From Candidatus Nanohaloarchaea archaeon (GTDB taxonomy: Archaea > Nanohalarchaeota > Nanosalinia > Nanosalinales > Nanosalinaceae): 64,000 nt of DNA. The stretch lies in NCBI GenBank assembly GCA_013343275.1, contig CP046106.1:640001-704000 (forward strand). The letters run 5' to 3'. Position numbers and translations under genes: made by a program. Below are positions 27,179-32,934 of the stretch, piece by piece (position 1 is the stretch's first letter; each line of letters starts with the position of its first letter). The notes beneath the pieces are model-generated. The model had not been told where the DNA came from. It was given only the letters and a program-made list of their open reading frames with translations, and ran no database searches.

Positions 27179-28120
27179 TCAGAAAACCTTCTCTCCTTCC
27201 ATTTCAGGCCTTTCGCCTTCAATCAGCTCCGATATATCATCACGGAAGAAAAACTCGTTGAGAACTTCCAGATCATCTGAATTCTCGGCCTTCCTGATCC
27301 CTTCATCTGATCCAAGAATATATCCCGGATCCTGGCTGTACTGAGGTGGTAGCGCGTACTCAGGATTTGACGAAAGCCGTTCTACATCAAGAACTTCGGA
27401 ACCGAAAACAAACTCCGGTTCATATACACTCCAGTCATTTCCAAGCTCATCTACAACGCTCTGCCAGGCCTTTCTCCAGCTAGATGTCTTCTTAACGAGC
27501 GAGCCTCCGCCACGATTATCAGCAGTATCCTGGGCATTAGACTGATCGAAACCTCTTCTTTCAGGCTCAGCGTCCAGAAGCTGGTGTTCTTCCATCTCTT
27601 CCTCTTCAATGAAGAAACGGGCTTCGGCCGGATACTCCTCCTCTATTTCGCTCCATTCTGCAGGATCAGGATCCGAGAACTCTCCACGGTTTTTTACATC
27701 TGTATAGCCTTCATGAGGTTTAACCTCTACCATGTGGGCCTCGTAACGATCCAGATCCAGGAAAAGAAGGTCGGCATCTCCCATCAAAGTTTCATGCTCG
27801 GAAGCTGACATATCTCCCGGGTTCTCATGGAAATCTCTCTCGGTAAGCACCAGATCCCATTTATTGCTGCCGCGATCGATATTTTCAGCGTAACGATCTA
27901 ATCGGCCGTCAACCAGCAGGTCGTGGCGATCCTGAGATTCCCGTGGATCAGAACGCAAAATACCTTCGACATAGGTACCTTCCTCTATCCTGACACCAGG
28001 CTGAGAAACTACTTCCGGAGTCCATGGACGGCCCTGACTAGCATTTTCAAGAACAACGGCGTGCGCATCCTCTGTAATATCATATCTATCTAATGCCTGC
28101 GCCGCATCAAGATCTCCCAT
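27179..28120 (-). CDS. Hypothetical protein with PD-(D/E)xK-like motif
   Basis: 313 aa, acidic; E...GDADLLFLD....HMVEVKP. Confidence 0.6.
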   Translation of the reverse strand: MGDLDAAQALDRYDITEDAHAVVLENASQGRPWTPEVVSQPGVRIEEGTYVEGILRSDPRESQDRHDLLVDGRLDRYAENIDRGSNKWDLVLTERDFHENPGDMSASEHETLMGDADLLFLDLDRYEAHMVEVKPHEGYTDVKNRGEFSDPDPAEWSEIEEEYPAEARFFIEEEEMEEHQLLDAEPERRGFDQSNAQDTADNRGGGSLVKKTSSWRKAWQSVVDELGNDWSVYEPEFVFGSEVLDVERLSSNPEYALPPQYSQDPGYILGSDEGIRKAENSDDLEVLNEFFFRDDISELIEGERPEMEGEKVF

Positions 28121-28158
28121 CTAAAGAAAAATCACACAGTACAAGATTAAAAATATTT

Positions 28159-28647
28159 CTACAGCTCCGACAGCACATCAGAACCTACCATATCTACAAA
28201 GTCCTCATAGGCCTCATCTCGGGCAAAATCCTGATGCTCAGGCCAGTAAACCGTGCCTGCAAGAAGAGAGTTTTCAGGCCTCTCCAACTCCCTGGTATTA
28301 TCGTAGGGAATCGTGGCCAACTCATAACCCCAGTCATTATCCAGTTCCTGAATTATACCGGAAACTTTACGGCCTTCAGAGAACTCTGCACCCGGATCAA
28401 AATCCGTGGAGGCCGGCGAAAAATCAACGTCGTAAATGCGGAGGTAACAGTTCTCCAGGTCAAAATTAGCCATATCTACCTTAACTCCGGGCCTCTTCCC
28501 GAGATCGAAACCCTCTACATCTTCGGTTTCAGCGTTATACTCTCCTCTAACCAGAATATCGAAAGGCCTGTCGCTACCAACTTCGCTCATCCTTTCACGG
28601 GTAATTCTATCCCAGAACAGCTCTTTATGAGAGATATCGTTCGACAC
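28159..28647 (-). CDS. Hypothetical acidic protein
   Basis: 162-aa ORF; GTG start; composition typical of this genome. Confidence 0.65.
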   Translation of the reverse strand: MSNDISHKELFWDRITRERMSEVGSDRPFDILVRGEYNAETEDVEGFDLGKRPGVKVDMANFDLENCYLRIYDVDFSPASTDFDPGAEFSEGRKVSGIIQELDNDWGYELATIPYDNTRELERPENSLLAGTVYWPEHQDFARDEAYEDFVDMVGSDVLSEL

Positions 28648-28767
28648 AGAAAGTTAAATGACTGGCAAAATATTTACAGTAACGCCCTACTGTTGAGATT
28701 GACTGCAGCATTCAAAACCTCCGACAGTAAGAATTTAACAGTTAAGCACGAAGACTTCTCTGTTCCA

Positions 28768-28803
28768 ATGAAAGGTGGACGCTTTTATCCACGAGAAGTT
28801 TGA
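28768..28803 (+). promoter_or_regulatory. Putative leader peptide of tyrS (MKGGRFYPREV)
   Basis: ATG..TGA in frame; TATA-like TTTAAC/GTTAAG upstream; 16-nt identity with the serS leader. Confidence 0.6.
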
Positions 28804-28874
28804 AAACGCCGTAAAACCTTCCAGCCACAGCTCTTTAAGCGTTCTCTCACAAATTCTTCGTAGGTAGATACTAA

Positions 28875-29900
28875 ATGGACAACGAGAAACGTAAAGAACT
28901 AGTTCTCCGTAACTCGGAGGAGATAATCCAGGAAGAAGAACTGGAACAGATACTTGAAGAAAAAGACGAGCCACGGGCCTACGTAGGATACGAGACCTCA
29001 GGGCCTGTACACCTCGGCCACTGGATCTCAGTCCGTAAAATGCTGGACATCCAGAAAGCAGGATTCGATCCCGTAATTCTGTGGGCAGATCTGCATACCT
29101 TCCTCAACAAGAAAGGAGAGGAGGACTGGATCGAGGACATGATCGAGTACTGGCAGGCCACATTCGAAGCTCTAGGCCTTGACGCAGAGTACGTCCACGG
29201 CCGGGACTTCCAGGAAGACGACGAGTACTTCCACGATTTATTGACCATGATGCAAAAAACCACGATCAACCGTGGAGAACGCTCAATGCAACACGATTTG
29301 AGGGACAAGGACGAAGTCTACATCTCCCAGATCACATACCCACTGATGCAGGCACTTGACATCGTCCACCTAGACCTTGATCTGGCAGTCGCTGGAATCG
29401 AGCAGAGAAAAATCCACATGCTCGCAAGAGAACAGCTGCCAAAACTCGGATACGAGAAACCAACCTGCCTGCACTGGCCTCTACTCACATCACTGGCCGG
29501 AAGCGGGGACAAAATGTCTTCATCCAAGAAAAACACGATGTTCCCACTGCACGCAGACCCAGAAGACATCAGGGACGTACTTGAAGACGCTTACTGCCCA
29601 CAGGGCGAAGTAGAAGACAACCCGATTATCCAGATCTGCCAGTTCTTCATCTTCGGAGCAGACCGCGAACTAACAGTCGAGAGAAAAGAAGAATACGGCG
29701 GAGACCTCCACTACGAAACATTTGAGGAGATGACAGAAGATTTCGAAAGCGGCGAACTCCACCCGCTGGACCTAAAAGAAGCAGTAGCAGACGAAGTAAT
29801 CGACAGATTCGAACCAGTAAGAGAAAGGTTCAAAGAAGAACCAGAACTACTGGAACCGCTCGAAGAGATAGGCCACGAAAAACCAGATTATCTGAAGTAA
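28875..29900 (+). CDS. tyrS: Tyrosine--tRNA ligase
   Basis: YVGYETSG.VHLGH, YPLMQALD, KMSSS. Confidence 0.96.
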   Translation: MDNEKRKELVLRNSEEIIQEEELEQILEEKDEPRAYVGYETSGPVHLGHWISVRKMLDIQKAGFDPVILWADLHTFLNKKGEEDWIEDMIEYWQATFEALGLDAEYVHGRDFQEDDEYFHDLLTMMQKTTINRGERSMQHDLRDKDEVYISQITYPLMQALDIVHLDLDLAVAGIEQRKIHMLAREQLPKLGYEKPTCLHWPLLTSLAGSGDKMSSSKKNTMFPLHADPEDIRDVLEDAYCPQGEVEDNPIIQICQFFIFGADRELTVERKEEYGGDLHYETFEEMTEDFESGELHPLDLKEAVADEVIDRFEPVRERFKEEPELLEPLEEIGHEKPDYLK

Positions 29901-29932
29901 AGGCCTTCTCTTCTTCTAACTTTTTCTTTTCT
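29901..29932 (+). terminator. AGGCCT plus T-tract after tyrS
   Basis: AGGCCTTCTCTTCTTCTAACTTTTTCTTTTC. Confidence 0.55.
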
Positions 29933-29997
29933 AGCTAGTTCCCCTTTGGCAGATAGAGTTACTGTATGTTGAAATGTAGAGAAGTAAAGTTGAGAGT

Positions 29998-30198
29998 TTA
30001 CTCCTCTTCTGGATCGTCTTCTTCTACCCAGACACGTACTTTTCCGGGCGGTGCGTCGAAAGGCCTTTTGCCAAACCTGATGTTCTCCGCGAGATCCATT
30101 GCTTCCTTTATCTTGTCGAATTCTTTTTCTGTTACTACTTTTTCCTTGAGTTCGGTGGGATGTGTTTCATCGAACTCGTATCCAGCTACTTCTTTCAT
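29998..30198 (-). CDS. Small hypothetical protein
   Basis: 66-aa acidic ORF with ATG and upstream ATAAAG box. Confidence 0.55.
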   Translation of the reverse strand: MKEVAGYEFDETHPTELKEKVVTEKEFDKIKEAMDLAENIRFGKRPFDAPPGKVRVWVEEDDPEEE

Positions 30199-30280
30199 GT
30201 ATACCTATGGGACAGGCATCTTTATGATATCTCGACATCAACAGGATTGAACTAAAAAGAAACAAGTTACAATTTAAGGT

Positions 30281-30661
30281 GTGAAGATCACTATCTACGG
30301 CCGCACGCTCAACGTCTACGAGCAGTTGATCGATGAACCGCAGAAAGAAGTTAACGACCAGCTTAACGAATACTTCAACGGAGACCGGGAAATCTTTGAC
30401 CTTGAGTACGATATTCCTGAAGGATTTGTCGGCAGTGTTCTCCGCGAGATCCAGAAAATAGACTACGGGGAGACCAAGACCTATGGAGAAATTGCTGATA
30501 AAGTAGACAGCATTCCTATAGCTGTAGGTCAGGCCTGCAGCAAGAACCCTCTCCCTCTAATCGTTCCCTGCCACAGAGTAGTAGGTAAAAACTCTGTAGG
30601 AGGGTATCTTGGAGAAAGCGATAGTGAAGTGAAACGGAAACTGCTACAGCTAGAGAAATAA
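30281..30661 (+). CDS. ogt: Methylated-DNA--protein-cysteine methyltransferase
   Basis: TYGEIA, AVGQA, PCHRV. Confidence 0.92.
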   Translation: MKITIYGRTLNVYEQLIDEPQKEVNDQLNEYFNGDREIFDLEYDIPEGFVGSVLREIQKIDYGETKTYGEIADKVDSIPIAVGQACSKNPLPLIVPCHRVVGKNSVGGYLGESDSEVKRKLLQLEK

Positions 30662-30695
30662 GTTTTTAACTCTGCTTGCAGAATTTCTGGTTACA

Positions 30696-30806
30696 ATGAA
30701 AGGTGGACGTCCCTCTGAAAATCGGAGATTTTCTGGAGTCAAAGGAAATCTGCGATTTCCAGACTTTTCTCACCGGACACATTTTGCAACCAACCAGGCT
30801 CGATGA
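30696..30806 (+). promoter_or_regulatory. Putative leader peptide of serS (MKGGRPSENRRFSGVKGNLRFPDFSHRTHFATNQAR)
   Basis: ATG..TGA in frame; TTTTTAAC about 27 nt upstream; homologous to the tyrS leader. Confidence 0.6.
30710..30763 (+). repeat. Double-hairpin GAA...TTC element, copy A
   Basis: GAAAATC-gga-GATTTTC and GGAAATC-tgc-GATTTCC; 54-nt in-frame insertion relative to the tyrS leader. Confidence 0.7.
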
Positions 30807-30863
30807 GAGCCAGTTAGATCTAAAACCTATTCTAGATAAAAATTTCTACGTAAGTGGTTACGT

Positions 30864-32126
30864 ATGATTGCTATAGAAGTCTTCCGCGATAATCCTGAGG
30901 AGATTAAAGACGCACAGAGACGTAGAGGAAAAGACCCTGAGAAAGTAGATAAAGTAGTTGAACTCGACAGAGAATGGAGAGAGAAACTGCAGGAGCTTGA
31001 ATCTCTTCAGCAGGAGAGAAACGAAGTAGGGGATAAGATCGCGGAGCTTAAACAGGAAGGAGAAGATGCCTCCGATAAAATTGAACGCATGCAGGAAGTA
31101 AAACAGAGAATCAGCGAGCTGGAGGACGAAGTCGACGATCTGAAAGAGGAACGTGACGAAGTCCGCTACCAGGTAGGCAACCTGCTAGCCGACGATGTTC
31201 CTGAAGGAGAGGGAGAGGAAGACAACCCAGAACTCCGGACATGGGAGCCGGAGGAAGGGATGAAAGAGGACTCAAAACTTGCTGCAGACTTCCTTGAAGA
31301 AAACGATCTTCTGTCAGCGGAGAAGGCCACAGAGGTAGGAGGAGAACGCGCATACTACCTATCACCGGAATTGCTACAGCTGAGCCAGGCCCTGATCAAC
31401 TTCTCGATCGACTTCCTGAAAGAGAAAGACTTTGGAGTCTATCAGGTGCCGTACATGCTGGAGGAGAAGTCGATCTCTGCAGCTGTAGATCTGGAAACAT
31501 TCGAAGACCAGCTCTACCAGGTAAACGAAAACGACAGATACCTGATAGGTACCGCAGAACATGCACTGGCCGCGAAATATCAGGGGGAAGTAATAGAACA
31601 AGACCTACCACTCAAACTTGGAGGATACTCCACAAACTTCCGGAGAGAGGCCGGTAAACACGGTAAACAGACCAGAGGTCTCTGGAGAGTCCACCAGTTC
31701 GAGAAAGTAGAGCAGTTCGCATTCTGCAAACCAGAAAACCACCTGGATATACTCCAGGAGACTCTTGGCAATGCAGAGGAGATCATGCAGGAGCTAGGTC
31801 TTCCATACCGAGTAGTCGATATCTGCGACGGCGACATCTCGAACAAGACCTTCAAGCAGTACGATATCGAGGTATGGAGGCCTCCTCTCGGAGAGTACGG
31901 AGAAGTTGGTAGCTACGGGTCATGTACCGATTACCAGGCCCGCGAGTTCGATACCAGATACCGTGAGCAAGGCGACAGAAAAGTTCCTTACACAGTCTAT
32001 GCGACCGGTCTCGTACCTCAGAGGATCATCACGGCAATTATTGAGAACAATATGACTGAGAAAGGAGTGAAGATTCCAGAGGCATTACAGGATTACATGG
32101 GTGGGAAAGAGTACCTGGAAGTTTAG
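30864..32126 (+). CDS. serS: Serine--tRNA ligase
   Basis: N-terminal coiled coil, GTAE, FRREAG, RVHQFEKVEQF, TDYQAR. Confidence 0.97.
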   Translation: MIAIEVFRDNPEEIKDAQRRRGKDPEKVDKVVELDREWREKLQELESLQQERNEVGDKIAELKQEGEDASDKIERMQEVKQRISELEDEVDDLKEERDEVRYQVGNLLADDVPEGEGEEDNPELRTWEPEEGMKEDSKLAADFLEENDLLSAEKATEVGGERAYYLSPELLQLSQALINFSIDFLKEKDFGVYQVPYMLEEKSISAAVDLETFEDQLYQVNENDRYLIGTAEHALAAKYQGEVIEQDLPLKLGGYSTNFRREAGKHGKQTRGLWRVHQFEKVEQFAFCKPENHLDILQETLGNAEEIMQELGLPYRVVDICDGDISNKTFKQYDIEVWRPPLGEYGEVGSYGSCTDYQAREFDTRYREQGDRKVPYTVYATGLVPQRIITAIIENNMTEKGVKIPEALQDYMGGKEYLEV

Positions 32127-32184: not shown

Positions 32185-32703
32185 TTACTGGAGGCCTGCG
32201 TCGTAGTTGCTTCCGAATGCGCGGTCGCCTTCGCTGGATGAATGGCCTACGATCTCTTTGCTTTCTTCATCATTGAAGAGTCCCGAGAAAGCATTCATGG
32301 CTTCTTCGCTTTCAAAACCTGTGGCCCATCTATCGTATTCCGGGCCTTCTGTGTGAGGTTCTTTATCTTCAGGTCTCTGACCATTTTGATCGTAGTGCGA
32401 AGGATTGTTGCCCGGCCTGTCCATTGTTACTCCTGCGACTCTTTCAAATTCTACAACCCTTGGATCTTTATCCAGATCAACTGGCGAGGAAATTTCGGAT
32501 TCTTCGGAGCCGTAGAGCACATCTCTAAGCTCTTCAGGTTCAACTCCGACATCTTCAGCAGCTTCTTCTACTGAGTCGTATCTTTCTTCCCCTATATAGA
32601 CTGCTGGTTCGTCTTCTGGAATATCAATATCGTCAGGACTCTCAAATCTGTCTTGCCAGAATTCTTCGTTTGTCTTGGCGTACTCAGGTTTTCTATCTAC
32701 CAT
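32185..32703 (-). CDS. Acidic hypothetical protein with NUMOD1-like HTH
   Basis: YDSVEEAAEDVGVEPEELRDVL; GGAGG Shine-Dalgarno upstream. Confidence 0.65.
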   Translation of the reverse strand: MVDRKPEYAKTNEEFWQDRFESPDDIDIPEDEPAVYIGEERYDSVEEAAEDVGVEPEELRDVLYGSEESEISSPVDLDKDPRVVEFERVAGVTMDRPGNNPSHYDQNGQRPEDKEPHTEGPEYDRWATGFESEEAMNAFSGLFNDEESKEIVGHSSSEGDRAFGSNYDAGLQ

Positions 32704-32777
32704 CAGTACCGGCCTCCTGTTTTTTCTACTGATTTTAAATGGTTGAATACCATAGAGTTGTGTTGTAGTTGTTTCAT
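32703..32777 (-). CDS. Putative 24-aa small ORF (MKQLQHNSMVFNHLKSVEKTGGRY)
   Basis: AAGGTGA Shine-Dalgarno upstream; TGATG overlap with next gene. Confidence 0.45.
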   Translation of the reverse strand: MKQLQHNSMVFNHLKSVEKTGGRY

Positions 32778-32868
32778 GTGTATTGTCACCTTTTAGAATT
32801 TTTACAGCAGTAGAACTAGCAGCAGTAGAGCCACAAGTTCCACAGAAGCTTTGGAGTTAGAGAAAAAG

Positions 32869-32934
32869 CTATCGTAGCAGAACGCATCCACCCTTAGGCA
32901 CAAAACAACCACCTGAAGTCGTGTCTGCGTTCAT
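32869..32934 (-). CDS. Putative leaderless 21-aa ORF (MNADTTSGGCFVPKGGCVLLR)
   Basis: TTTTATAAG box about 25 nt upstream of ATG. Confidence 0.4.
   Translation of the reverse strand: MNADTTSGGCFVPKGGCVLLR

Follow-up and report, generated by a model that had tools for sequence, protein, structure and literature searches.

A short leader element ahead of aminoacyl-tRNA synthetase genes in Nanohaloarchaeota-type archaea: a candidate charged-tRNA sensor that probably works through a +1 frameshift

In the 64,000-nucleotide stretch of DNA analysed here (the window), tyrS and serS each stand behind a short leader ORF carrying a codon for the enzyme's own amino acid, and the leaders suggest, on sequence comparison, a previously undescribed way of sensing uncharged tRNA. 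We consider it fairly probable that the leader is an amino-acid-specific sensor of charged tRNA, in which a ribosome waiting at a hungry codon would shift to the +1 frame and then be coupled to the synthetase start. Comparison between genomes shows the cognate codon, the translation of frame 0, the early frame-0 stops, the +1 frame open up to the start, and the conservation at the nucleotide level. From these we infer the frameshift itself, reinitiation, the part played by an SD-like core, and the direction in which control runs. The first-pass annotation had proposed that a pause on the cognate codon turns the synthetase on. The sensor codon of that proposal stands, and the output is probably a +1 frameshift rather than simple pausing.

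In the proposed mechanism, a leaderless transcript would begin with the short leader ORF. With ample cognate aminoacyl-tRNA, the ribosome would read frame 0 and stop a few codons on, far short of the synthetase start. Under shortage of that aminoacyl-tRNA, the A site would be empty, and the pairing of the SD-like core with the 16S 3' end, 2 nt closer to the P site than at real start sites in these leaders, together with a slippery P-site codon would favor a +1 shift. The shifted ribosome would then read a frame presumably kept stop-free by selection and terminate on or beside the synthetase start, often at an ATGA, and the enzyme would be synthesized by termination-reinitiation. Ribosome cover on the RNA may contribute. 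For a few genes (242-aa GNAT-like, Trp sensor), the +1 frame would be the gene itself, with the protein made only after the shift.

The description of the window locus in the first-pass annotation was largely borne out (Table 1). The identical 16-mer CAATGAAAGGTGGACG reported before both genes is found exactly at both sites; in shuffles the mean was 0.03 matches, and two or more matches occurred in 0/100 shuffles. Family-model scores agree with the naming of the downstream genes as tyrS and serS. Each 16-mer opens a short ORF, and codon 7 is TAT before tyrS and TCT before serS, as had been read. The TATA-like boxes, described as lying at leaderless-mRNA distance, are both 25-28 nt upstream of the leader ATGs, in agreement with a family-wide A+T peak. 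The frame-0 stop of the tyrS leader falls 74 nt upstream of the tyrS ATG. The 54-nt hairpin insert noted in the serS leader is real: the minimum-energy structure is a hairpin, and a same-genus genome (G053, locus L067) is uninterrupted, reading GGACG-CTTTTCTCACCGG, while the 54 extra bases are present in G000 and G054. The serS leader inserts among close relatives are 54 and 51 nt long, both multiples of three. The CCC-TCT site of the window's serS leader keeps the canonical spacing to the SD-like core, and its CCC-U would permit exact +1 re-pairing. An open +1 frame that ends in the ATGA overlap recurs in 24/24 SerRS leaders.

Table 1. Leader features and downstream genes in the window (positions counted from its first letter)
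Feature	Position	Strand	Remark
TATA-like box AATTTAAC, tyrS leader transcript	28732..28739	+	
16-mer CAATGAAAGGTGGACG, tyrS leader	28766-28781	+	
tyrS leader ORF, frame 0, MKGGRFYPREV-stop	28768..28803	+	ATG 28768; stop TGA 28801-28803
SD-like AGGTGG, tyrS leader	28773..28778	+	complementary to 16S 3' end ...GGAUCACCUCC
Proposed shift site, tyrS leader	28783..28788	+	TTT (P site) + TAT (A site, Tyr sensor)
Codon 7 TAT (Tyr sensor), tyrS leader	28786-28788	+	
+1 frame, tyrS leader, open from sensor	28787..28867	+	TAG 28865-28867 ends 7 nt before tyrS ATG
tyrS (tyrosine--tRNA ligase, 341 aa)	28875..29900	+	NF006330, 404 bits
TATA-like box GTTTTTAAC, serS leader transcript	30662..30670	+	
16-mer CAATGAAAGGTGGACG, serS leader	30694-30709	+	
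serS leader ORF, frame 0, 36 codons	30696..30806	+	ATG 30696
SD-like AGGTGG, serS leader	30701..30706	+	
54-nt insert (18 codons, predicted hairpin), serS leader	30710..30763	+	frame 0 and +1 frame both stay open
Proposed shift site, serS leader	30711..30716	+	CCC (P site) + TCT (Ser sensor)
In-frame TCT codons, serS leader	30714-30716, 30732-30734, 30768-30770	+	first is codon 7
+1 frame, serS leader, open from first Ser sensor	30715..30867	+	TGA 30865-30867 overlaps serS ATG (ATGA)
serS (serine--tRNA ligase, 420 aa)	30864..32126	+	TIGR00414, 404 bits
Third leader, two in-frame motif copies	32869..32934	-	MNADTTSGGCFVPKGGCVLLR-stop
Third-leader sensors	32899-32901, 32878-32880	-	GTG (Val) and CTG (Leu), respectively
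+1 frame, third leader	32802..32900	-	open to TAA 32802-32804
SD-preceded 24-codon ORF, then 172-aa ORF	32185..32777	-	downstream of third leader; ATG of 24-codon ORF about 32777

The count of only two examples in the window did not hold, as a third element was found on the minus strand. Its TATA-like TTTTATAAG ends 22 nt upstream of the leader ATG. Behind it, the TGA of the 24-codon ORF overlaps the ATG of the 172-aa ORF (TGATG), and the latter has no Pfam family match.

The element extends well beyond the window. Allowing up to one mismatch, we found the 16-mer four times in the window's genome, the two further copies standing before ThrRS (codon 7 ACC) and GlyRS (codon 7 GGA). A shorter core adds ValRS, ProRS, CysRS, and four non-synthetase targets in the same genome. 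All 7/7 synthetase leaders of this genome carry the cognate codon at the same position, with GTA for ValRS, CCA for ProRS, and TGT for CysRS besides the four already given. Across the phylum, the element is present in 64/70 genomes. We labelled a copy when it precedes a named synthetase or biosynthesis gene, which applied to 116 of the 168 exact-core copies. The codon tracks the downstream gene, as the first reading of the locus had supposed: the sensor is cognate in 116/116 labelled copies spanning 12 amino acids, and in all 110 of the synthetase-labelled subset, where related genomes are non-independent samples and the counts rest on comparison. Other cognate pairs include HisRS with CAC, PheRS-alpha with TTC, TrpRS and TrpB with TGG, LeuA with CTG, and IlvA with ATT/ATC. 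LysRS with AAG, found with one-mismatch cores, is a 13th amino acid. Non-orthologous enzymes of the same specificity, namely the bacterial-type and archaeal-type ThrRS and ProRS, have the same kind of sensor. The motif is not equally frequent before unrelated genes. Most leaders have a single sensor codon, the exceptions being the Cys leaders, the tandem motifs, and the G000 serS leader with its insert.

Several features point to translation of the leader. An in-frame ATG lies within 14 codons, with no stop between, in 153/168 copies, compared with 6/168 and 56/168 in the control frames; 54 of these 56 are the ATG inside a GGATG variant, leaving 2. Most of the 15 copies that lack a near ATG have one in frame at a greater distance upstream or come second in a tandem pair whose members share a frame. 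Leaders that have lost the canonical ATG have another in frame a few codons upstream and keep the reading frame, and tandem motif copies are mutually in frame. Around the leader ATG (153 leaders), A+T peaks at -36 to -24, with C at -2 in 64% and A at -1 in 65%, which fits leaderless transcripts. A translated leader that would sense the cognate charged tRNA is thus well supported by these comparisons.

The conservation of the frame also bears on a T-box-like riboswitch, in which uncharged tRNA would be bound directly by the triplet (as specifier) and GGUGG without translation. The triplet does act like a specifier codon, and AAUGAAGGGUGGA is reminiscent of the GGGUGG of the bacterial T-box sequence. 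However, the ATG is kept in 153/168 copies (6 and 2 for the control frames), the tandem copies are in frame, and no conserved stem structure is seen. The triplet is 7 nt from GGUGG, too near for the anticodon and the 3' end of one tRNA, and the base following UGG is always A, whichever the tRNA. An Rfam search of window positions 28000-31500 with E up to 10 gave no T-box and no other family match. We regard direct tRNA binding as very improbable.

The first-pass annotation described homologous MKGGR peptides. A shared leader element is indeed present, but its conserved part is the nucleotides, not the peptide. From 5' to 3', the element consists of AUG, an SD-like RGGUG(G/A), five bases, a slippery NUU (mostly UUU), and the sensor codon, with the AUG at the canonical position or as much as about 20 codons before it. 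The two Gly codons are invariably GGT GGA, though their shares among Gly codons are 20% and 41%; TTT accounts for 24% of Phe codons and CGT for 13% of Arg codons. Codon 5 is Y-R-Y, encoding Arg, Cys, Tyr, or His (CGT 52, TGT 29, CGC 18, TAT 7, TGC 6, TAC 2, CAC 1, and CAT 1). The RGGTG core is the best-conserved part, and its RNA form is complementary to the 16S tail ...GGATCACCTCC.

The SD-like GUG of the leaders lies at -8 to -6 from the P-site codon. Where these genes have their real starts, the corresponding GUG peaks at -10 to -8, making the leader spacing 2 nt shorter. We infer that the SD-like core may act as a frameshift stimulator, an argument from spacing that takes its logic from bacterial prfB. 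We know of no demonstrated case of SD-stimulated frameshifting in archaea. The P-site codons are UUU (99), GUU (13), and CUU (4). After a +1 slip, exact P-site re-pairing is possible only for UUU-U and CCC-U, and two of three pairs are kept for UUU-A, UUU-G, and GUU-C. With C-initial sensors, the P site is GUU in all 6.

The frames downstream of the sensor differ. Between the sensor and the last 30 nt before the synthetase start, the +1 frame is stop-free in 102/102 synthetase leaders; the same test gave 0/102 for frame 0 and 30/102 for frame +2, with about 35 each in shuffles. This openness holds in whichever phase the start codon stands to the sensor (63/66, 26/26, and 10/10 for the three phases). 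The first +1 stop of the synthetase leaders overlaps the start as ATGA in 32 and otherwise lies mostly at -13 to +19. In a count over 117 leaders, 33 are ATGA overlaps and 110/117 of the +1 stops are within -29 to +19 of the start, while the frame-0 stop is more than 30 nt upstream of the start in 115/117. An upstream stop that overlaps or adjoins the downstream start, a feature of translational coupling, is present for the +1 frame only. Chance matches to the same 18-mer, taken from 50 records not titled as archaea, had a +1 frame open for at least 60 nt in 17/50, compared with 30/30 Nanohaloarchaeal records. The +1 frame falls 49 to 325 nt short of the start in three other settings, namely IlvA, the 393-aa ORFs, and those copies before TrpB that lie upstream.

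The open +1 frame might be entered without a shift if the leader held two overlapping ORFs. The +1 frame would then be self-started, either at a GUG in the motif or by ribosomes that reinitiate past the frame-0 stop, and constitutively coupled to the synthetase start, with frame 0 only modulating. Every copy does contain a +1-frame GUG within GGGUGGA, and the TGA overlapping the canonical leader ATG (ATGA) closes the +1 frame upstream, so the frame can only begin there. However, this GUG is without an SD at a usable distance and is 8 nt from the presumed 5' end. A sensor-stalled ribosome would cover it and yield less synthetase under starvation, the wrong direction of control. Such an arrangement also gives the cognate codon no role, and the +1 frame of G000 glyS is without ATG or GTG past the sensor. 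We consider self-starting of the +1 frame quite improbable.

In synthetase leaders, the +1 frame does not encode the regulated protein and stops at or beside the start codon. It encodes the downstream protein only in the 242-aa GNAT-like ORFs (Trp sensor) and in an approximately 120-codon ORF before TrpRS. In the fusion-type genes, the conserved protein (LEIEVYQNPE...) starts 3 residues past the shift site in the +1 frame, which has no start codon for 21 to more than 60 codons; ahead of it lie 11-19 codons of frame 0 that begin with an ATG.

A ribosome paused at the sensor might instead alter expression without any frameshift, through leader RNA remodelling, 5'-end protection, or transcription-translation coupling, as bacterial leader-peptide attenuators do. 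The cognate codon and the translated leader would fit such stalling equally well, and structure in two leader families speaks for it: a covarying hairpin begins 1-2 nt past the sensor in GlyRS leaders, and a hairpin conserved among ThrRS leaders lies further down. Cys-rich leaders (MKGGCVCGDGDDDGCGCGGDCDC-stop) stand before tRNA-Cys with several Cys codons, like classical attenuators; a Cys-sensor leader was upstream of the tRNA-Cys gene in 4/5 loci tested. Because a tRNA gene is beyond the reach of translational coupling, there must be one or more further outputs, possibly on transcription. Nevertheless, stalling leaves unexplained both the openness of the +1 frame (102/102, ending at the start codon) and the early frame-0 stops (open in 0/102 against about 35 expected), and most leaders have a single sensor codon. 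There is no structure common to all families (RNAalifold energies of -4.8, -1.6, 0.0, and -0.9, with no strongly covarying column pairs), and mutually exclusive hairpins of the terminator/antiterminator or start-hiding kind were not found across the leader families, nor is the start region predicted to be hidden. Overall, we consider stalling without a frameshift unlikely, and the hungry-codon shift remains our preferred reading.

The start region of the synthetases bears on the shift as well. Hiding of the start by leader structure was not predicted, with an unpaired probability of 0.44 compared with 0.40 for shuffled leaders and less accessible starts in 32/100, computed at 37 °C with low-salt energy parameters that are ill-suited to a high-salt cytoplasm. 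Since the start region is not predicted to be hidden, the 'off' state is unexplained. The synthetase genes have an SD-like site of their own (match of at least 4 nt) in 71/102, and the A+T block at -30 to -20 of these genes could be a second promoter.

Taking the evidence together, we think it rather probable that a portable module of about 25 nt underlies a phylum-wide regulon in the tiny halophilic archaea of the Nanohaloarchaeota type, such that a programmed +1 frameshift follows when a specific aminoacyl-tRNA runs short. It would be the first natural hungry-codon frameshift sensor and would fill in archaea the role that the T-box has in bacteria. The module would turn on 11 or more synthetases, IlvA, LeuA, TrpB, and a tRNA gene, yield trans-frame fusions made only under starvation, and label proteins of unknown family by its sensor codon. 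Sensors for Trp, Ile/Leu, Leu, Val, or His precede several proteins without a family match; with the sensor codon as a functional label, they become candidates for amino-acid uptake or salvage in host-dependent cells. The literature searched contained no general cis-acting archaeal system matching synthetase levels to tRNA charging and nothing like the leaders. With 13 specificities and more than 160 natural variants, the leaders are an easily tested candidate for such matching, and a 25-nt module with an exchangeable codon could report the charging of individual tRNAs compactly. If the frameshift is confirmed, it would add a further case of regulatory programmed frameshifting in archaea, for which a 2021 review gives a single -1 case (PMC8211752).

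Among known systems, the T-box riboswitch is likewise modular, stands ahead of many genes for synthetases and amino-acid functions, and takes its specificity from one exchangeable codon. The present element differs in being archaeal, about 25 nt long, apparently ribosome-dependent, and free of Stem I, antiterminator, and Rfam match; its leader reading frame and ATG are conserved, whereas the T-box works without leader translation. Bacterial leader-peptide attenuation (trp, his, pheST, and thr operons) shares a short translated leader with codons of the controlled amino acid, and its targets are also synthetases and biosynthesis genes (here IlvA, LeuA, and TrpB). Unlike attenuators, the leaders usually have one sensor codon instead of a run, no conserved terminator/antiterminator hairpins were found in them, and their output appears to be a change of frame. 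The mycobacterial polycysteine leaderless short ORFs are reported to be Cys-responsive attenuators (bioRxiv 10.1101/834739). As Cys-codon-rich leaderless short ORFs they resemble the Cys leaders before tRNA-Cys, but they are bacterial, have no SD-like core or single-codon design, and control the downstream ORFs of their operon.

The hungry-codon frameshifting of Gallant and the yeast Ty1 site CUU-AGG-C are alike in a +1 shift at a starved A site with slippage of an xUU P-site codon, and CUU-A is found in four ThrRS leaders. Ty1 differs in using a constitutively rare tRNA for a fixed product ratio. Starvation-induced hungry-codon shifts in E. coli are regarded as errors. According to the review of Atkins et al. 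(2016), no hungry-codon shifts that make starvation-specific products are known (PMC5009743), a gap in the recoding literature that a confirmed frameshift would fill. The same review also discusses the frameshift site of prfB (PMC5009743), the gene for release factor 2.

As in prfB, a slippery xUU P-site codon in the leaders follows an SD-like element at a distance of a few bases. Common to both would also be an A-site codon that is slow when the gene's own product is limiting, with the shift raising expression in a homeostatic loop. The +1 shift site of E. coli prfB, AGGGGG-UAU-CUU-UGA-C, has a C after the A-site codon; C is also the commonest base there in the leaders (70/115), and the +1 codon is GAC in 17/20 GlyRS leaders, the same codon as in prfB. 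The leaders differ from prfB in that their sensor is a sense codon (for 13 amino acids) instead of a stop codon and lies in a separate ORF instead of inside the gene, the +1 frame of synthetase leaders ends at the start codon without encoding the product, and the leaders come from archaea with leaderless transcripts.

The first-pass annotation had described MKGGRx leader peptides before tyrS and serS in the window. The shared 16-mer, CAATGAAAGGTGGACG, occurs there twice without mismatch, with a shuffle expectation of 0.03 copies and at least two copies in 0 of 100 shuffles. The downstream ORFs score as tyrosine--tRNA ligase and serine--tRNA ligase, and each 16-mer copy contains an ATG that opens a short ORF, with a TATA-like box 25-28 nt upstream. 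As described, codon 7 is a Tyr codon (TAT) in the tyrS leader and a Ser codon (TCT) in the serS leader, and the two leaders are alike beyond the 16-mer as well. The 54-nt insert recognized in the serS leader is real: a same-genus genome has the uninterrupted form, and the insert is present in the window's genome (G000) and in one other relative. Close relatives carry serS-leader inserts of 54 and 51 nt, each divisible by three. The statement that the window holds only two examples has to be corrected, because a third leader of the family lies on the minus strand. The remaining synthetases of G000, among them LeuRS and AlaRS, which had been described as lacking the motif, show no exact or one-mismatch core passing the grammar filter. 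The original observation is confirmed and greatly extended.

G000 is a single contig of 915,886 bases. With up to one mismatch, the 16-mer has four copies in it, all on the plus strand, and the two further ones are located 110 nt upstream of ThrRS (codon 7 ACC) and GlyRS (codon 7 GGA). Related genomes had been suggested as the place to look next, and the element was found across the phylum. A 15-mer pattern with one mismatch allowed was present in 61 of 70 phylum genomes, and its reversed control was absent from 54 of the 70. A sequence-only covariance model was built from 30 element copies, with the loci L003, L004 and L015 excluded from the alignment as chance matches; it gave matches in 64 of the 70 genomes; of the 28 high-quality ones, 26 had matches. 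When one genome per prokaryotic species was scanned, the named records were titled Nanohaloarchaea, Nanohalobium, Nanosalina or Asbonarchaeum, and the scattered single bacterial matches were about as numerous as expected by chance. We defined the element by the core RGGTGGAYR, then NNTT, then the sensor triplet, and applied this definition to the regions around the matches, obtaining 168 distinct exact-core copies. G000 contains 12 exact-core copies, compared with 2 in its reversed sequence. The match at genome position 550412 (AAA) was rejected as a chance one, having no leader ATG and a +1 frame that closes after 6 nt.

The sensor triplet tracks the gene downstream. Downstream ORFs were labelled by NCBIfam on representatives and then by the best BLASTP match to those representatives. 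Every one of the 116 elements ahead of a named synthetase or biosynthesis gene carries a cognate codon: ThrRS (34 elements; ACC, ACA, ACT), SerRS (26; TCC, TCT), GlyRS (20; GGA), TyrRS (12; TAC, TAT), ValRS (5; GTA), CysRS (3; TGT), TrpRS (3; TGG), ProRS (3; CCA, CCG), HisRS (2; CAC), PheRS-alpha (2; TTC), TrpB (3; TGG), IlvA (2; ATT, ATC) and LeuA (1; CTG). Among the remaining 52 of the 168, 26 had no match, for 5 the fetched stretch contained no ORF, and 21 precede ORFs of unknown family, endonuclease V or a glutamine-amidotransferase (GATase)-like ORF. LysRS with an AAG sensor was found among the one-mismatch cores. The sensor is of the same kind where enzymes of one specificity differ in ancestry, as ThrRS and ProRS of bacterial and archaeal type do. 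The seven synthetase leaders of G000 belong to ThrRS, GlyRS, TyrRS, SerRS, ValRS, ProRS and CysRS. Its ProRS (L189) is short (408 aa) and bacterial-type (proS_fam_II, 404 bits), and the archaeal-type ProRS of other phylum genomes (L182) likewise stands behind a Pro sensor. The elements at L150 and L130 have an AAA (Lys) triplet before an endonuclease V gene, where a link to lysine is not obvious.

The leaders have the marks of translated sequences. In 153 of the 168 copies an in-frame ATG lies no more than 14 codons away with no stop in between, against 6 and 2 of 168 in the control frames (the latter after setting aside the ATG inside a GGATG variant). Many copies have another triplet (ATC, CAG, CTG and others) in place of the canonical ATG; they carry an in-frame ATG a few codons further up, and the position of the TATA box changes with it. 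Most of the other 15 copies either have a more distant upstream ATG or stand second in a tandem pair that shares one frame, as in MSKAITGGRFIEGQLEKGGRVLQTK (ending at a stop), with Ile and Leu sensors, and in the third leader of the window. Relative to the leader ATG, A+T content peaks at -36 to -24 and CA is found at -2/-1, which fits leaderless transcripts. In our view the element is very probably a leader that is translated and senses through its cognate codon, and sequence comparison supports the earlier reading of it as a candidate sensor of tRNA charging.

The conserved part of the element is RNA and not peptide. Both Gly codons are fixed as GGT GGA, yet GGT accounts for 20% of Gly codons and GGA for 41%; TTT, at 24%, is the rarer codon for Phe, and CGT represents 13% of Arg codons. 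Codon 5 is Y-R-Y, coding Arg, Cys, Tyr or His. In the validated one-mismatch variants GGUG is constant and the following two bases vary. RGGUG is complementary to the 3' end of the 16S rRNA of this genome (...GGATCACCTCC). The possibility that MKGGR is a conserved arrest peptide was ruled out, because codon 5 varies in its amino acid and the Gly codons show no synonymous variation.

In the synthetase leaders, the +1 frame is kept open from the sensor to the region of the start codon. In the G000 leaders, frame 0, the frame of the leader ATG, ends 4-29 codons further on. The +1 frame of thrS, glyS, serS, proS and cysS stays open until a TGA overlapping the synthetase ATG; that of valS ends 2 nt before the ATG (its TAA starts 5 nt before), and that of tyrS ends 7 nt before (its TAG starts 10 nt before). 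Stop positions were counted in the 117 of the 168 exact-core elements with a downstream ORF of at least 300 aa; for ORFs beginning with GTG or TTG, we set the start at the first ATG found in the initial 12 codons. In 115 of the 117 the frame-0 stop is over 30 nt ahead of the start, the first +1 stop falls within -29 to +19 of the start in 110 (with an ATGA overlap in 33 of these), and frame +2 stops early in 81. An openness test was applied to 102 of the 110 synthetase-labelled elements, eight being truncated by the end of their locus. The +1 frame had no stop to within 30 nt of the start in 102/102 leaders, compared with 0/102 for frame 0, 30/102 for frame +2 and about 35 per frame in shuffles. 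The open +1 frame is seen in every family, whichever phase the start codon has with respect to the sensor. It extended for at least 60 nt in 17 of 50 bacterial chance matches to the 18-mer versus 30 of 30 Nanohaloarchaeal records. L260, a public record titled as a gammaproteobacterial (Colwellia) MAG, was in neither group; its exact 18-mer match may be chance or a mis-binned contig. The +1 frame ends well before the start at IlvA, the 393-aa ORFs and the upstream copies before TrpB.

Two blocks are conserved in the leaders at about -50 to -20 from the synthetase ATGs, CAAAACCU(U/G)UUCUAG and (C)UAUAAAAAUUUC. The second forms an A+T peak at -30 to -20 from the main ATG and is phased throughout so that the +1 frame gains no stop. 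It could be a second, internal promoter.

In some loci the conserved protein is itself the +1 frame. A 242-aa GNAT-like ORF (weak Pfam match to Acetyltransf_1, E = 6.7e-5) stands behind a Trp sensor in three genomes (L193, L142 and L149), with a second Trp-sensor leader 280 nt upstream. An ORF of about 120 codons precedes TrpRS in two more genomes. In both types, the conserved protein starts three residues past the shift site in the +1 frame, which lacks a start codon for 21 to more than 60 codons and is preceded by 11-19 frame-0 codons that begin with an ATG and have a TATA box of their own. Both proteins would be made only by +1 entry at the motif.

The codon in the P site at the proposed shift site is UUU in 99 elements, GUU in 13 and CUU in 4, and C is the commonest base after the sensor (70/115). 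At the real starts of the same genes the SD-like GUG peaks at -10 to -8, and in the leader it lies at -8 to -6 from the P-site codon, 2 nt closer. In bacteria, compressed SD spacing promotes a forward shift. Because the spacing is compressed and the layout resembles those of prfB and Ty1, we propose a +1 shift at the empty A site. When the sensor codon leaves the A site empty, the ribosome would shift to +1, translate up to the synthetase start, terminate there and reinitiate. All four parts of this scheme are inferred: that the ribosome shifts, what the core does, that translation reinitiates, and in which direction control acts. We favor the frameshift-and-coupling mechanism with moderate confidence. 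Some features fit it less well. The P-site tRNA can re-pair exactly after a +1 slip only where the sensor begins with U, and before sensors beginning with C the P-site codon is always GUU. The synthetase genes also have their own SD-like sites and the A+T block, a possible second promoter. Equally hard to reconcile with it are the +1 frames that end early at IlvA, the 393-aa ORFs, the TrpB upstream copies and the third leader of the window, the start regions for which no hiding is predicted, and the tRNA-Cys targets.

A leader RNA structure shared across the families was not supported by the predictions. An Rfam search of window positions 28000-31500 with E up to 10 gave no T-box and four weak chance matches (FuFi-1, mir-8196, drum and bxd_1). 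RNAalifold energies for the GlyRS, SerRS, ThrRS and TyrRS leaders were -4.8, -1.6, 0.0 and -0.9, with local, family-specific hairpins alone, and a mutual-information scan of 115 sensor-anchored leaders found no strong complementary column pair (maximum 0.30). Two pairings were considered and rejected, one between AAGGU and the downstream AAAACCUU motif, the other between GUGG and a CCAC around the triplet, their partners being invariant or inconsistent across families. The start region is not predicted to be hidden by leader structure, and therefore expression without induction may be basal instead of fully off. GlyRS leaders alone have a hairpin 1-2 nt past the GGA sensor (e.g., L192, L019, L020, L069 and L080), with evident compensatory changes (CUGCC...GGCAG, CCGCG...CGCGG, CUGUC...GACAG).

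Other targets extend beyond synthetases. In the third leader of the window, 24 nt separate the end of the +1 frame from an SD-led ORF of 24 codons. A TGATG overlap couples this small ORF to one of 172 aa without a Pfam or NCBIfam match. At L195, the +1 frame ends 5 nt into the GTG start of the amidotransferase-like ORF. ORFs of 285-539 aa behind Ile+Leu, Leu, His or Phe sensors had no Pfam or NCBIfam match; their sensor codon may hint at the amino acid they help to handle. Of 5 loci tested that have a Cys-sensor leader, 4 have a tRNA-Cys(GCA) gene 100-250 nt downstream of it on the same strand; the frame-0 peptides of these leaders are Cys-rich (e.g., MKGGCVCGDGDDDGCGCGGDCDC, ending at a stop). 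With a tRNA gene as the target, the output there would be other than translational, acting on transcription or RNA processing.

Positions of leaders and associated features (L numbers are individual loci with the element)
Feature	Sequence or locus	Position	Strand	Remarks
16-mer before tyrS	window	28766	+	
16-mer before serS	window	30694	+	
Conserved leader block	window	28835-28850		
Conserved leader block	window	30828-30848		
Third leader, MNADTTSGGCFVPKGGCVLLR then stop	window	32869-32934	-	two in-frame motif copies, sensors Val (GTG) and Leu (CTG)
Region downstream of the third leader, with the 24-codon and 172-aa ORFs	window	32185-32804	-	
ProRS	L189, G000 genome	240087-241310		Pro sensor
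Leu-sensor leader, MKYSCDPVAQGGCVLVHRFK then stop	L195, G000 genome	318285-319112	-	before 243-aa class-I glutamine-amidotransferase-like ORF
285-539-aa ORF	L196, G000 genome	249223-250692	-	
285-539-aa ORFs	L138, L132, L178, L176, L188, L121, L114, L134			
242-aa GNAT-like ORF	L193, G000 genome	580358-581366	-	no start codon of its own
242-aa GNAT-like ORF	L142, L149			no start codon of its own
Cys-sensor leader	L009	1324-1395	-	
Cys-sensor leader	L013	1621-1692	+	
Cys-sensor leader	L153	498-571	+	
Cys-sensor leader	L014	714-785	+	

We found no description of the element in the full-text literature searched. It lacks the defining features of a T-box, having no Rfam match and needing translation. 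It lacks two features of classical attenuators, a run of codons and alternative hairpins. In its layout, with an SD-like part, a short spacer, an xUU codon in the P site and an A-site codon whose decoding is tied to the product of the controlled gene, the element is similar to E. coli prfB and the Ty1 hungry-codon site. However, the shifted frame of the element ends at the gene start, whereas that of prfB encodes the gene. According to a 2016 recoding review (PMC5009743), no natural hungry-codon frameshifting that yields starvation-specific products is known. The element would be a variation on known kinds of control, leader sensing mediated by the ribosome and autoregulation by +1 frameshifting, and if the shift is confirmed it would arguably form a class of its own.
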